NCBI GenBank assembly: GCA_963758635.1
Contig: CAVWWD010000003.1
Span: forward strand, 320,001-384,000
Direction of reading: 5' to 3'
Length of the DNA: 64,000 bases
DNA from: an uncultured Candidatus Rokubacteria bacterium
Lineage (GTDB): Bacteria > Methylomirabilota > Methylomirabilia > Rokubacteriales > CSP1-6
A model generated the notes under the pieces. The model was given only the letters and a program-made list of their open reading frames with translations, had not been told where the DNA came from and did not search any database. The number at the start of each line of letters is the position of its first letter. Within the stretch, counting starts at the first letter, position 1. Both the position numbers and the translations under genes were made by a program. Of the stretch, positions 22,514-40,470 are shown piece after piece.

Positions 22514-23710
22514 ATGGCCAAGGCGAAGTTCGATCGGACGAAGCCGCACGTGAACATCGGGACGATTGGGCACATCGATCACGGGAAGACGACGTTGACG
22601 AGTGCGATTACGAAGGTGCTGCACACGAAGTACAGCGGGGTGGCGGTGCGGGACTTTGGGACGATCGACAACGCGCCGGAAGAGCGGGAGCGGGGGATCA
22701 CGATCGCGGTGTCGCACGTGGAGTACGAGACGGGGAACCGGCACTACGCGCACATCGACTGTCCGGGGCACGCGGACTACATCAAGAACATGATCACGGG
22801 GGCGGCGCAGATGGACGGGGCGATCCTCGTGGTGGCGGCGAACGATGGGCCGATGCCGCAGACGCGGGAGCACGTGTTGCTGGCGCGGCAGGTGAATGTG
22901 CCGAGCCTGGTGGTGTTCATGAACAAGGTGGACATGGTGGATGATCCGGAGATTTTGGACCTGGTGGAGCTGGAGGTGCGGGAGTTGCTGAAGAAGTACC
23001 AGTTCCCGGGGGACGACATCCCGGTGGTGCGGGGCAGCGCGCTGGGGGCGATGGAGAAGCCGGAGGACGCGACGGCGTCGAAGTGCATCTGGGAGCTGAT
23101 GGAGGCGGTGGACAGCTACATTCCGACGCCGCCGCGGCCGGTGGACAAGCCGTTTTTGATGCCGATCGAGGACATATTCACGATCACGGGGCGGGGGACG
23201 GTGGTGACGGGGCGGGTGGAGCGGGGGATCGTGAAGGTGGGGGAAGAGATCGAGATCGTGGGGATGCAGGAGGCGACGCGGAAGTCGGTGGTGACGGGGG
23301 TGGAGATGTTCCGGAAGCTGCTGGACGAGGGGCGGGCGGGGGACAACATCGGGGCGTTGCTGCGGGGGGTGGACAAGGACGAGGTGGAGCGGGGGCAGGT
23401 GCTGGCGAAGCCGGGGTCGATCAAGCCGCACAAGAAGTTCAAGGCGGAGGTGTACGTGCTGGGGAAGGACGAGGGGGGGCGGCACACGCCGTTTTTCAAC
23501 GGGTACCGGCCGCAGTTCTACTTTCGGACGACGGACGTGACGGGGGTGTGCACGCTGCCGAGTGGGGTGGAGATGGTGATGCCGGGGGACAACGTGACGA
23601 TGGCGATCGAGCTGATCCAGCCGATCGCGATGGAGAAGGAGCTGCGGTTCGCGATCCGGGAGGGGGGACGGACGGTGGGAGCGGGCGTCGTGGCGGAGAT
23701 CGCGGAGTAG
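22514..23710 (+). CDS. tuf: Elongation factor Tu, copy 1
   Basis: [21 protein letters not shown] and REGGRTVG motifs; 398 aa. Confidence 0.99.
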
Positions 23711-23713
23711 GTC

Positions 23714-23863
23714 ATGCGCGACGGCATCTCCTTGGCGTGCACGACATGCCAGCGACGCAACTACGCGACCACCAAGAACCGGCGCACGCATCCCGATCGC
23801 CTGGAGCTCAAGAAGTTCTGCAAGTGGTGCCGTAAGCACACTCCCCACCGGGAGTCGAAATAG
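23714..23863 (+). CDS. rpmG: 50S ribosomal protein L33, Zn-binding type (missing from the ORF track)
   Basis: Manual translation: [49 protein letters not shown]. Confidence 0.97.
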
Positions 23864-23915
23864 ACAACGCGGGCGCTGGCCCATTGTCCTAAGGGCCAAT
23901 TGTCCGAACGTTTCT

Positions 23916-23992
23916 AGGCGTGTAGCTCTAACGGCTAGAGCACCGGACTCCAAATCCGGGGGATGGGGGTTCGAATCCCTCCACGCCTGCCA
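23916..23992 (+). tRNA. tRNA-Trp(CCA)
   Basis: Acceptor stem AGGCGTG/CACGCCT, anticodon loop CTCCAAA, encoded CCA; usual position between rpmG and secE. Confidence 0.96.
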
Positions 23993-24071
23993 GTTCCGCC
24001 GCCGCGTGCCGGGGGACCGGCCGCGGCGAGCGGTGGAGTAAACGCTTCGAGGGTGTCTTGACGGGAGCGGA

Positions 24072-24263
24072 ATGGAGTTCCTGAGACGTACCCAGCAGTT
24101 CTTCCACGAGGTGATGGCGGAGTTCCGGCGCGTCAGCTGGCCCAGCCGCACCGAGGTGGCCAACTCCACCGTGGTCGTCGTGGCGGTGGTGTTCGTGCTC
24201 GCCTTCTTCCTCGGGGGGGTCGACGTCGCCCTGTCCAAGATCGTGGAGAGGATCCTCCGATGA
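24072..24263 (+). CDS. secE: Preprotein translocase subunit SecE
   Basis: EFRRVSWPSR followed by one TM helix. Confidence 0.96.
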   Translation: MEFLRRTQQFFHEVMAEFRRVSWPSRTEVANSTVVVVAVVFVLAFFLGGVDVALSKIVERILR

Positions 24264-36941: not shown

Positions 36942-36952
36942 CAGCCGAGACA

Positions 36953-36988
36953 AGAAGAGGGGGGCCGAGGGCTCGACCCCCCTCTTCT
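36953..36988. terminator. Strong hairpin between rpsG and fusA
   Basis: 12-bp perfect stem AGAAGAGGGGGG / CCCCCCTCTTCT followed by CTT. Confidence 0.55.
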
Positions 36989-37029
36989 CTTGAGTCGCGC
37001 CGTCCAGCATACGAAGGGAAGGGCGTCCC

Positions 37030-39135
37030 GTGGAACCGCAGTACCCGCTGGAGAAGACCCGCAACATCGGCATCATGGCTCACATCGATGCCGGCAAGAC
37101 GACGACCACGGAGCGCGTGCTCTATTACACCGGCCGCTCGTACAAGATCGGCGAGGTGCACGAGGGCACCGCCACCATGGACTGGATGGTGCAGGAGCAG
37201 GAGCGCGGCATCACGATCACCTCCGCCGCGACGACCAGCTTCTGGCGGGATTGCCGCATCAACATCATCGACACGCCGGGCCACGTCGACTTCACGATGG
37301 AAGTCGAGCGCTCCCTGCGCGTGCTCGACGGCGCCATCGCCATCCTCGACGCCGTCTCCGGGGTGGAGCCCCAGACGGAGACGGTGTGGCGCCAGGCCGA
37401 CAAGTACCAGGTGCCGCGCATCGTCTACGTCAACAAGATGGACCGCGTCGGCGCGGACTACTTCCGCTGCCTCACCATGCTCAAGGATCGCCTCGGCGCC
37501 CACCCGGTGCCGATCCAGATCCCGGTGGGCCGCGAGGAGCATTTCCGGGGCGTGGTGAACCTCATCGAGGAAGTGGCCTACATGTGGCCGGACGACGGCA
37601 ACCTCGGGCAGACATACGAGACCGTCGAGGTGCCGGCCGACATGCGGGAGCAGGTCCGCGAGTACCGGGAGAAGATGATCGAGGGCCTCGCCGAGGTCGA
37701 CGACCACCTCATGGAGAAGTACCTCGGCGGCGAGAAGATCAGCCCCGAGGAGATCCGCGCCGCCGTCCGCGCGGGGACGATCTCGATGCGGCTGTTCCCC
37801 GTGATCTGCGGGGCGTCGTTCAAGAACAAGGGCGTCCAGCCCATGCTGGACTGCGTGGTCGACTACCTCCCGTCGCCGCTCGACATCCCGCCCATCAAGG
37901 GCGTGGACCCGTACACGGGTAAGCCCGACACGCGCGCCGGCGATCCCACCGCCCCCTTCTCCGCCCTCGCCTTCAAGATCATGAACGACAAGTTCGTCGG
38001 CCAGCTCGTCTTCGTCCGCGTGTACTCGGGGACGATGGACGCCGGCGCCGGCGTGTACAACTCGACGCGCGACCGGAAGGAGCGCATCGGGCGGCTGGTG
38101 CGGATGCACGCCAACGACCGCGAGGACATCGAGTCGGTGTCGGCGGGCGACATCGCCGCGGTGGTCGGGCTCAAGGACACGCGCACGGGCGACACGCTCT
38201 GCGATCCCGACAAGCCGATCGTGCTCGAGTCGATGGACTTCCCCACTCCCGTCATCGCGGTGGCCATCGAGCCCAAGACCAAGGCCGACGAGGAGAAGCT
38301 GGGGCTGTCCCTCTCGCGGCTCGCCCTCGAGGACCCCACCTTCAAGGTCAACGTCGATCCCGAGACCAACCAGACGCTGATCCACGGGATGGGCGAGCTC
38401 CACCTCGAGATCATCGTCGACCGCCTCCTCCGCGAGTTCAAGGTGGAGGCGAACGTGGGCAAGCCCCAGGTCGCCTACCGCGAGACCGTCCGCCAGAAGG
38501 CCGAGGCGCAGGGGCGGTTCGTGCGCCAGACGGGCGGCCGCGGCCAGTACGGCGACGTGTGGCTGGAGATCGAGCCTGCGGGAGCGGGCGCCGGCTTCAT
38601 CTTCGAGAACAAGCTGAAGGGCCCGGCCATCCCCCGCGAGTACGTGCCCGCCGTCGAGAAGGGCGTCAAGGAGGCCGCGGAGACGGGCGTCCTCGCCGGC
38701 TACCCCATGGTGGACGTGCGCGTGGCGCTCACCGACGGCAGCTACCACGAGGTGGACTCGAGCGAGATGGCCTTCAAGATCGCCGGGTCCATGGGCTTCA
38801 AGGAGGCGTGCCGCAAGGCAAAGCCCGTACTCCTCGAGCCCGTGATGGACGTCGAGGTCGTGTGCCCCGAGGAGTACATGGGCTCGGTCGTCGGCGACCT
38901 GAACAGCCGCCGCGGGCGCATCGTCTCGATGGAGGCGCGGGCGGGCGCGCAGCTCATCCGCGCCAGCGTGCCCCTCGGGCAGATGTTCGGCTATGCCACG
39001 GACGTCCGCTCGATGACGCAGGGGCGGGCCACGTACTCCATGCAGTTCGCCCGGTACGAGGAAGTGCCGCGGGCCATCGCCGAGGAGATCGTGGCGAAAG
39101 TGGCCGGCAAGACACCGCGAGCGGGCTCCCGCTAG
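37030..39135 (+). CDS. fusA: Elongation factor G
   Basis: [25 protein letters not shown] and QTGGRGQYG motifs. Confidence 0.99.
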
Positions 39136-39214
39136 TGAGCCCCGCGCATCAGACTAACGCCGCAAAGGTGGGATTGTAGGGGCCCGTGACGGTTACCGTG
39201 TTCTGCGAGACTCA
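39136..39214 (-). mobile_element. MITE-like family B copy (79 bp) with perfect CTAG flanks
   Basis: CTAG-TGAGCCCCGC...GCGAGACTCA-CTAG; the first CTAG contains the fusA stop codon. Confidence 0.93.
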
Positions 39215-39273
39215 CTAGGGCGCCCTTCCGGGAACCCAGCATCACCGCGCTCCCCACGGCTTAGGAGAGGGAC

Positions 39274-40470
39274 ATGGCCAAGGCGAAGTTCGATCGGACG
39301 AAGCCGCACGTGAACATAGGGACGATTGGGCACATCGATCACGGGAAGACGACGTTGACGAGTGCGATTACGAAGGTGCTGCACACGAAGTACAGCGGGG
39401 TGGCGGTGCGGGACTTTGGGACGATCGACAACGCGCCGGAAGAGCGGGAGCGGGGGATCACGATCGCGGTGTCGCACGTGGAGTACGAGACGGGGAACCG
39501 GCACTACGCGCACATCGACTGTCCGGGGCACGCGGACTACATCAAGAACATGATCACGGGGGCGGCGCAGATGGACGGGGCGATCCTCGTGGTGGCGGCG
39601 AACGATGGGCCGATGCCGCAGACGCGGGAGCACGTGTTGCTGGCGCGGCAGGTGAATGTGCCGAGCCTGGTGGTGTTCATGAACAAGGTGGACATGGTGG
39701 ATGATCCGGAGATTTTGGACCTGGTGGAGCTGGAGGTGCGGGAGTTGCTGAAGAAGTACCAGTTCCCGGGGGACGACATTCCGGTGGTGCGGGGCAGCGC
39801 GCTGGGGGCGATGGAGAAGCCGGAGGACGCGACGGCGTCGAAGTGCATCTGGGAGCTGATGGAGGCGGTGGACAGCTACATTCCGACGCCGCCGCGGCCG
39901 GTGGACAAGCCGTTTTTGATGCCGATCGAGGACATATTCACGATCACGGGGCGGGGGACGGTGGTGACGGGGCGGGTGGAGCGGGGGATCGTGAAGGTGG
40001 GGGAAGAGATCGAGATCGTGGGGATGCAGGAGGCGACGCGGAAGTCGGTGGTGACGGGGGTGGAGATGTTCCGGAAGCTGCTGGACGAGGGGCGGGCGGG
40101 GGACAACATCGGGGCGTTGTTGCGGGGGGTGGACAAGGACGAGGTGGAGCGGGGGCAGGTGCTGGCGAAGCCGGGGTCGATCAAGCCGCACAAGAAGTTC
40201 AAGGCGGAGGTGTACGTGCTGGGGAAGGACGAGGGGGGGCGGCACACGCCGTTTTTCAACGGGTACCGGCCGCAGTTCTACTTTCGGACGACGGACGTGA
40301 CGGGGGTGTGCACGCTGCCGAGTGGGGTGGAGATGGTGATGCCGGGGGACAACGTGACGATGGCGATCGAGCTGATCCAGCCGATCGCGATGGAGAAGGA
40401 GCTGCGGTTCGCGATCCGGGAGGGGGGACGGACGGTGGGAGCGGGCGTCGTGGCGGAGATCGCGGAGTAG
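39274..40470 (+). CDS. tuf: Elongation factor Tu, copy 2
   Basis: Protein identical to copy 1; I found three synonymous nucleotide differences. Confidence 0.99.

Follow-up and report, generated by a model that had tools for sequence, protein, structure and literature searches.

The two copies of tuf, the gene for elongation factor Tu (EF-Tu), in the genome of an uncultured Candidatus Rokubacteria bacterium carry G in place of C at nearly every four-fold degenerate third position, and the cause of this shift very probably acts on the DNA and is linked to gene conversion. The window analyzed is the whole stretch of 64,000 nucleotides at positions 320,001 to 384,000 of contig CAVWWD010000003.1 (assembly GCA_963758635.1), and coordinates refer to it unless another contig is named. 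The genome contains two full tuf matches, both on the + strand of the window. Copy 1 (22514..23710, 398 amino acids) is located 3′ of a tRNA cluster, and copy 2 (39274..40470), which encodes an identical protein, is located between fusA and rpsJ. Comparison with other bacteria suggests that strong shifts accompany two homogenized copies combined with a mismatch-repair system, and that the type of shift follows the repair enzyme. The best reading of these sequence comparisons is probably strand-polarized gene conversion between the tuf copies, filtered by MutS and MutL.

The four-fold third positions comprise G199 C5 A2 T0 in copy 1 (206 codons) and G198 C5 A2 T0 in copy 2 (205 codons). The C-ending codons are numbers 2, 105, 174, 391, and 392, and all eight four-fold families shift alike, whatever the amino acid. 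Genome-wide amino-acid-specific codon use predicts 108.8 C at these sites, against 5 observed (z = −15). Genes were called with a self-trained codon model over the whole 6.17-Mb assembly, and of the 4,321 genes that have 80 or more four-fold sites, the tuf copies hold ranks 1 and 2 by G/(G+C) at these sites (G share), with a value of 0.975 compared with a genome median of 0.463 and a 99.9th percentile of 0.70. The initial annotation, which had proposed this genome-wide comparison, described both copies as almost purged of C at synonymous sites. Its coordinates, codon lists, and three synonymous copy differences were all exact on recount, its denominator of 398 codons has to be replaced by the four-fold count of 206, and the purge is confined to four-fold sites. 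Two-fold pyrimidine sites show C64:T13 (T share of 0.169 versus 0.086 genome-wide), 23 of 28 Ile codons are ATC, and 92 third positions remain C. At four-fold sites G is chosen over C, without a general loss of C. The copies are 99.7% identical, with three differences in 1,197 bp (22558 C/39318 A, 23020 C/39780 T, and 23360 C/40120 T); their polarity carries little weight, as the assembly has frame switches nearby. Sequencing runs contained at most 0.49 of the sampled words and were left aside.

The composition changes sharply at the limits of the gene. Over 60-codon ends, the counts are G17:C19 at the end of fusA, G28:C1 at the start of tuf copy 2, G32:C2 at its end, and G16:C21 at the start of rpsJ, so that the abrupt switch reported earlier, bounded by the homologous tract, is borne out. 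Short edges of the tract are spared. At the 3′ edge of copy 1 (23684..23689, + strand), codons 391 and 392 (GGC GTC) retain C, as do the matching codons of copy 2 (40444..40449, + strand), and at the short 5′ edge (22517..22519, + strand) codon 2 is GCC, with C at this codon in 18 of 31 genes from the same order. Across these 31 tuf genes of the order, C has a share, counted from the 3′ end, of 0.62 at codons 6 to 10, 0.18 at codons 11 to 20, and at most 0.09 in the interior, and the 5′ spared edge comprises the first five codons only. G-shifted tuf genes retain C over the last 10 to 20 codons, and the strongly shifted genes of other phyla (n = 7) have a similar 3′ edge (C share of 0.55 to 0.64 versus 0.11 to 0.23). 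The last tuf codons encode Gly, Ala, and Val and are C rich also in genes without a shift, and the edge therefore matches the background. The two copies show 55 differences in total across 13 genomes of the order, and 11 of these fall within the last 30 bases. Such a tract anatomy is what a homology-dependent process would be expected to give. Residual C in the interior of own-order tuf genes (codons 24, 109, 256, 267, and 298) often stands before AA (GGC.AAG, CGC.AAG, and GCC.AAG), a possible context effect.

The dependence of the shift on copy number was followed across bacteria, with the shift expressed as the log-odds of G:C in tuf minus that in neighboring genes and called strong above 1; loci with fewer than 80 neighboring four-fold sites are excluded from these counts. 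The 120 loci returned by a pattern scan of a species-level genome collection all come from 1 of the 64 parts of the collection, and the pattern, which demanded G or C at five sites, favors GC-rich tuf genes. Copies were counted for 50 of the 120 loci, picked after the G share had been viewed and favoring long contigs as well as high and low values, with one unpublished genome dropped; unpublished genomes were excluded throughout (G057, G090, G253, G334, G350, G370, G503, G775, and G815). Outside the phylum of this genome, the median G share is 0.667 in 29 multicopy genomes versus 0.367 in 20 genomes with single or diverged copies, and tuf exceeds its neighbors by more than +0.5 log-odds in 17 of 29 multicopy versus 1 of 19 single-copy genomes, with kin not independent and P values for this contrast therefore overstated. 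The lone single-copy exception, G217, has the nusG-side copy only, in a genome that may be incomplete. The comparison of one-copy with two-copy relatives that the initial annotation had called for places strong shifts in two-copy genomes and none in 27 single-copy genomes (0/18 with MutS and 0/9 Actinomycetota). Its tie between the bias and two homogenized copies holds in this respect; two copies alone are insufficient, with 0/42 strongly shifted among two-copy genomes lacking MutS and, where tested, a clear NucS. Within the order, 13 tuf pairs have at least 99% DNA identity, and orthologues share 87 to 96% of amino acids with the query. A scan of viral contigs gave three loci and was uninformative. 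One alphaproteobacterial tuf copy (L096, genome G218) has a G share of 0.72 in its 5′ half and 0.44 in its 3′ half, possibly a mosaic of partial conversion. In lower-GC two-copy genomes (L053, L057, L059, L192, and L210), tuf four-fold G+C lies far above that of the neighbors (e.g., 0.93 versus 0.71), with MutS or without, which could reflect GC-biased conversion or selection.

Strong shifts of homogenized pairs go with a mismatch-repair enzyme and vary with its type, a dependence that is not anticipated in the initial annotation. The present genome has MutS and MutL, encoded adjacently on contig C5, and NucS was not found in it. The MutS_I family is present in 17/17 own-order genomes tested and MutL in 3/3, and all 13 own-order genomes with two copies and MutS lie above 1 (median of +2.61). 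Two-copy genomes of sister orders in which MutS was not found are strongly shifted in 0/9 cases (median of −0.57), their near-identical pairs being mildly C shifted. Outside the order, MutS_I was found in 0/8 genomes of group f7, 0/6 of f13, 0/1 of f6, 0/1 of f10, and 2/3 of f8; two of the negatives are single-contig assemblies, and absence of an enzyme from an incomplete genome is no proof of absence. In f8, the two genomes with MutS have shifts of +0.47 and +0.52, and the congener without it has −0.29. In genus g61, G050 and G054 share a mutS locus (96.5% identical) and have G shares of 0.61 and 0.62, and G049, where MutS was not found, has 0.44. The class of G215 (titled Chloroflexia) has MutS in 1 of 64 genomes and strong shifts in 0/31 two-copy genomes, and NucS was not found in the 17 genomes of this class tested. 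Two-copy Actinomycetota with neither enzyme (G777, with copies identical at 1179/1179 positions, and G211) are shifted in 0/2 cases. The 42 unshifted two-copy genomes without MutS also have, where tested, no clear NucS; weak NucS-family matches (E values of 1e-4 to 6e-13) in several sister-order and Chloroflexota genomes were not counted as NucS. The T:A choice in MutS groups is −0.77, −0.83, and −0.87 (small counts), with +0.18 in a mixed fourth group, and T:C values are +0.49 and +0.04.

A strict requirement for MutS was rejected, as the MutS-less Acidimicrobiia are strongly shifted, pointing to NucS. In this class, MutS was found in 0/49 genomes and a strong NucS match in 48/49. Twenty two-copy genomes were picked from a listing ahead of seeing their sequences. 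NucS-positive two-copy genomes with scorable neighbors are shifted above 1 in 16/16 cases, toward G and T, with pair choices of G:C +1.99, T:A +2.71, T:C +2.10, G:A +0.85, G:T −0.18, and A:C −0.54; all six values match what NucS specificity would predict. G777, the sole genome of the class without a strong NucS match, has its identical copies unshifted. The copies of the unshifted NucS-positive genomes G650, G655, G754, and G630 are only 88 to 90% identical and so are not homogenized pairs. Weak shifts (+0.43 to +0.71) occur in G784, G670, G841, and G814, where protein scores differ between copies.

The direction of the shift varies in Chloroflexota. The 27 MutS-positive two-copy genomes of this phylum include 3 that are strongly G shifted (G share of 0.87 to 0.93), 7 that are strongly C shifted (0.10 to 0.20), and 17 within 1 log unit, and none of 8 single-copy genomes is shifted. 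One genus is reversed, with G shares of 0.09 to 0.20. Its C-shifted genes retain G over the first 20 to 40 codons, so that the 5′ end is spared in mirror image of the G-shifted genes, and the T:A choice is mirrored as well (+1.56). Judged from flanks of 20 kb, the locally G-poor strand carries 11 of the 12 copies of C-shifted genomes, and the G-rich strand carries both copies of G530; the intermediate genomes G536 and G494 have one tuf copy on each local strand type. The direction thus appears to follow mostly the local strand skew and not the coding strand. With a model that had been trained on a different contig, the + strand of the window in the present genome scores as leading (z = +4.7), consistent with leading-strand G. 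These comparisons support the strand-asymmetric process proposed earlier, whereas a general cytosine-removing process is contradicted by the reversed genus and by the C kept at two-fold sites. The candidate rule that a lagging-strand copy gives a C shift, derived from dnaA position, was not supported. In the genus of G515 (L344 to L361), placing the origin at dnaA gives most flanks a C-rich leading strand.

Strand-polarized conversion filtered by MutS and MutL would operate as follows. The copies would overwrite each other via a heteroduplex in which mostly the donor non-coding strand pairs with the recipient coding strand, here probably the leading strand, and any mismatch visible to the repair enzyme would cancel the transfer. 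A donor G against a recipient C would form a C:C mismatch, missed by MutS, and the change would pass, whereas a donor C against a recipient G would form a G:G mismatch, caught by MutS, and would be rejected; many rounds would leave G at all free G/C sites. Differences of C/T and G/A would give A:C and G:T mismatches, both well repaired, and would stay near background, and tract ends, rarely within the heteroduplex, would keep the background composition. The underlying specificities are reported from the laboratory: C-C mismatches go uncorrected, G-G mismatches are well repaired, and annealing is biased to the lagging strand (PMC5021808, available in part). With NucS, reported to repair G-G, G-T, and T-T (PMC11551767 and PMC6159521, in the portions available), cutting of G:G, G:T, and T:T only would let G and T beat C and A and leave G:T and A:C neutral, which is the pattern of the repeats known as GRINS. 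With neither enzyme, no strong skew would be predicted. In Salmonella, the mismatch type is described as shaping tuf conversion tracts, with T/T repaired less well than A/A (PMC5485169, available in part). Poorer repair of T/T by MutS would give A over T on the G side, and A over T is accordingly the prediction for MutS lineages; the three groups given above are negative, with small counts.

Several observations weigh against this reading. Two copies and MutS are insufficient, as only 8 of 23 such genomes of other phyla exceed 1, the remaining 15 being weakly shifted, with four of the 23 at zero or negative; the effect could be hidden there by selection on codons or by infrequent conversion. 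G216 (+0.63) and G238 (+0.36) are mildly G shifted with two copies and MutS not found in incomplete assemblies. A test set beforehand, the MutS-bearing two-copy genome G400, came out negative (0.24); its mutS is found in a segment of 50% GC that abuts DNA of 70% GC (L290, contig C6, 8000-18000), which suggests that the gene is foreign, by a chimeric contig or a recent import. In Acidimicrobiia, 4 of 10 scorable genomes with a single tuf match are strongly shifted, possibly owing to a collapsed second copy. The class of two-copy genomes without either enzyme comprises about five lineages, with kin not independent. A and T are depleted at tuf four-fold sites of two-copy genomes whether or not these have repair enzymes, a depletion that the model does not explain, and the conversion events and their strand polarity are themselves deduced from comparison. 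Within the present genome, most other near-identical repeats are unshifted (those with an identity of 93% or more have medians of 0.525 and 0.48), with outliers among internal-repeat proteins on contigs C7 (0.80) and C12 (0.23 and 0.28) and in an insertion-sequence pair (0.68 to 0.73). For Chloroflexota, just 10 of the 27 MutS-positive two-copy genomes exceed 1, G522 and one copy of G572 break the local-skew rule, and six fusA-side flanks are homologous and hence not independent. The dnaA-based assignment of leading and lagging strands did not predict the direction of the shift. The dnaA positions suggested that most copies of the C-shifted genus are co-oriented with replication, and this genus would consequently have an inverted skew. 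In this genus, either tuf may be head-on or the genome skew may be inverted, with a hint of the inverted skew.

Explanations based on expression account poorly for these data. The tuf gene is a classic highly expressed gene and tRNAs for G-ending codons exist in the genome, which would be compatible with ordinary translational selection for G-ending optimal codons. This is nevertheless very improbable, in line with the initial annotation: 27 pooled ribosomal-protein genes have a G share of 0.456 versus 0.462 genome-wide and match the genome in all eight four-fold families, the tuf families move one way irrespective of the amino acid, and there is one rRNA operon match. Genes for abundant proteins, picked by short motifs, range from 0.37 to 0.59 (groEL, dnaK-like genes, EF-Ts, atpD, rpsA, glnA, and others), with fusA at 0.40, EF-Ts at 0.48, rpsA at 0.40, and groEL at 0.59; with ribosomal-protein genes equal to the genome and no expression gradient, expression-linked codon bias was ruled out. 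The same lack of a gradient argues against gene-specific selection by which the most abundant transcript would be kept C poor and weakly folded or free of Rho sites, the alternative named in the initial annotation. The 100-nucleotide windows of tuf do fold less, at −31.7 kcal/mol versus −35.7 ± 0.9 for 30 versions recoded to the codon use of the genome. Single-copy tuf genes are, however, unshifted (0/27), near congeners span G shares of 0.10 to 0.62, and the pattern varies with a DNA-repair enzyme, so that such selection is improbable and the weaker folding is read as a by-product. Only slightly less doubtful than translational selection is the reading in which very heavy transcription of tuf damages its coding strand. 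The gene is highly transcribed and T is slightly raised at two-fold sites, but the co-transcribed fusA and rpsJ are normal right up to the gene boundary, the leader of the single rRNA operon (G204:C192) and its spacers are unskewed, and the direction is reversed in one genus. Least credible of all is that tuf came from a G3-rich donor or that the pattern is an assembly artifact. It is true that rpoB and rpoC contain frame switches in this assembly and that two low-complexity, G/T-rich blocks occur elsewhere, but both copies encode the same intact protein, and all own-order relatives measured are shifted (0.81 to 0.98) in assemblies of 4 to 900 contigs. In the EF-Tu protein tree, a check proposed earlier, the order forms one clade (0.999) that is sister to unshifted orders of the same class (0.843), with no distant donor. 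Because the shift is order-wide and the tree follows the class, both import and artifact are rejected and horizontal acquisition of tuf is excluded.

The nearest rival shares the link to conversion. Conversion-associated mutagenesis, in which one-strand errors in repair synthesis or exposure of single-stranded DNA would accumulate where the repair enzyme misses them, derives the bias from new mutations and not from biased transfer, and comes closest to the initial annotation and to the proposal of the GRINS authors. It would likewise account for the way in which the shift depends on two copies, on the limits of the tract, and on the repair enzyme; error-prone replication is proposed in the accessible text of PMC8256042, and NucS-shaped mutation is linked to a leading-strand excess of G and T in that of PMC6159521. 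A G:C ratio of 40:1, however, would require conversion-linked C-to-G mutation about forty-fold above all other G/C changes, and plain deamination would lift T at two-fold sites far beyond the observed C64:T13. This mechanism is thus a plausible but rather unlikely alternative to strand-polarized conversion filtered by MutS.

The unique DNA between the copies (23711..39273, + strand) has an ordinary G share of 0.38 to 0.57 and serves as an internal control. It carries tRNA-Trp, nusG, rplK, rplA, rpoB, rpoC, rpsL, rpsG, and fusA on the + strand, with names read off the translations; high-GC3 frame switches inside rpoB and rpoC (~28500-28600 and ~35000) are probably single-base assembly errors. 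Upstream of copy 1, a cluster of tRNA-Thr, -Tyr, -Gly, and -Thr genes (21983..22423, + strand) forms a single-copy context, and an Rfam search returned tRNAs only. At 22408-22444, a 16-base stretch from the 3′ end of tRNA-Thr(GGT) is directly repeated 21 bases downstream. Elsewhere in the genome, the extremes among 54 repeated coding segments sort by inferred strand, the most G rich being leading and the most C rich mainly lagging, with the orientation of contig C12 not significant (z = −1.3). Surface-type proteins with internal repeats have G shares of 0.79 to 0.88 (C7:106258-108371) and of 0.23 and 0.28 (C12:127953-129098 and C12:171056-172903), and in the last of these the C bias is strongest across two repeated domains. 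A transposase-like pair (C7:143470-144856 and C4:1791-3178, 98% identical) has 0.59 to 0.73, and a four-copy repeat family has 0.25 to 0.46, on the inferred lagging strand at 4/4 places. The single groEL (C9:254323-255942), with its G share of 0.59, is near the 99th percentile. The strongest skews of the genome are in two non-coding blocks with a near C-free strand, one G+A rich (C3:18900-19800) and one G+T rich (C8:32100-33300), possibly junk of long-read consensus.

The location and near identity of the tuf pair are those of the tufA/tufB pairs known for concerted evolution. These are described as ancient, near-identical pairs in tRNA/nusG and fusA/rpsJ contexts (PMC5485169 and PMC6053082, both available in part), and the efficiency of MutS on each mismatch is reported to shape their conversion tracts (PMC5485169). 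The present pair occupies the same two contexts, and pairs in its order are near identical while orthologues diverge. Unlike here, no compositional drive is reported in the portions of this literature that were available, and "skew," "MutS," and "GC-biased" are absent from the available text of PMC6053082. The rules of recombineering (PMC5021808 and PMC11551767, in the same portions as above), with lagging-strand annealing, escape of C:C, repair of G:G, and NucS acting on G:G, G:T, and T:T, would give the directions observed; they concern single laboratory events with a phage recombinase, whereas the tuf shift is natural, long term, and between chromosomal paralogues.

GC-biased gene conversion is strand symmetric and favors the G:C pair over the A:T pair. 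The tuf process would resemble it as a heteroduplex repair bias that acts like selection at neutral sites. GC-biased conversion cannot, however, choose G over C on one strand, and G199:C5 fails its symmetry; a separate mild GC gain in tuf may coexist with the G-over-C shift. In Thermus, a preference for G in tuf genes was reportedly noted decades ago. If true, the proposed mechanism would add to bacterial evolution a strand-asymmetric biased gene conversion able to set 97% of free sites in the most highly expressed gene, and would mean that, in such lineages, tuf misleads when used as a standard for optimal codons or for nucleotide-level phylogeny.

The closest likeness is to GRINS, the mechanism behind which is stated as unknown in the available text of PMC8256042. 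A literature search, with subscription journals mostly outside its coverage, retrieved nothing that describes skewed tuf pairs or that attributes GRINS to mismatch repair, and tuf or elongation factor is mentioned neither in the available text of PMC8256042 nor in the one supplement file searched, although its data tables could list tuf. The contrast of MutS, NucS, and neither enzyme in tuf offers a specific mechanism for GRINS, testable in existing assays. The broader proposal, that the blind spots of repair enzymes are written into every converting repeat, MutS giving G over C, NucS giving G and T (GRINS), and neither giving no skew, stands for now at an even balance of belief and doubt; if true, twin tuf genes would be a universal sequence reporter of the repair system and of recombination strand polarity, and GRINS would be a by-product of repair and not a genetic element. 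Like GRINS, the tuf pair is a duplicated coding tract of more than 500 bp, homogenized by gene conversion, with abrupt edges and an intense third-position strand skew that can take either sign. Its 1,197 bp in two copies with three differences exceed the GRINS thresholds of length (>500 bp) and identity (>80%), and in 150-nucleotide windows with a step of 30 its mean absolute GC skews of 0.337 and 0.342 exceed 0.15, as do those of 0.3% of 2,191 genes. The mean absolute TA skews of 0.154 and 0.150 lie at the GRINS threshold of 0.15, and are negative and background-like (median of 0.125, with 29% of genes above 0.15). The correlation of GC and TA skews typical of GRINS (r of ~0.7, outside the formal definition) is weak here (r = 0.20 and 0.24), with a mean TA skew of −0.13 alongside a GC skew of +0.34. 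Unlike GRINS, the pair has G over C only, without a correlated T-over-A skew, and is a housekeeping gene pair in a genome with MutS and MutL; the full G+T form of GRINS is found in tuf of the NucS-bearing Acidimicrobiia. The tuf pair works like GRINS and is a variant restricted to G and C rather than a typical member.

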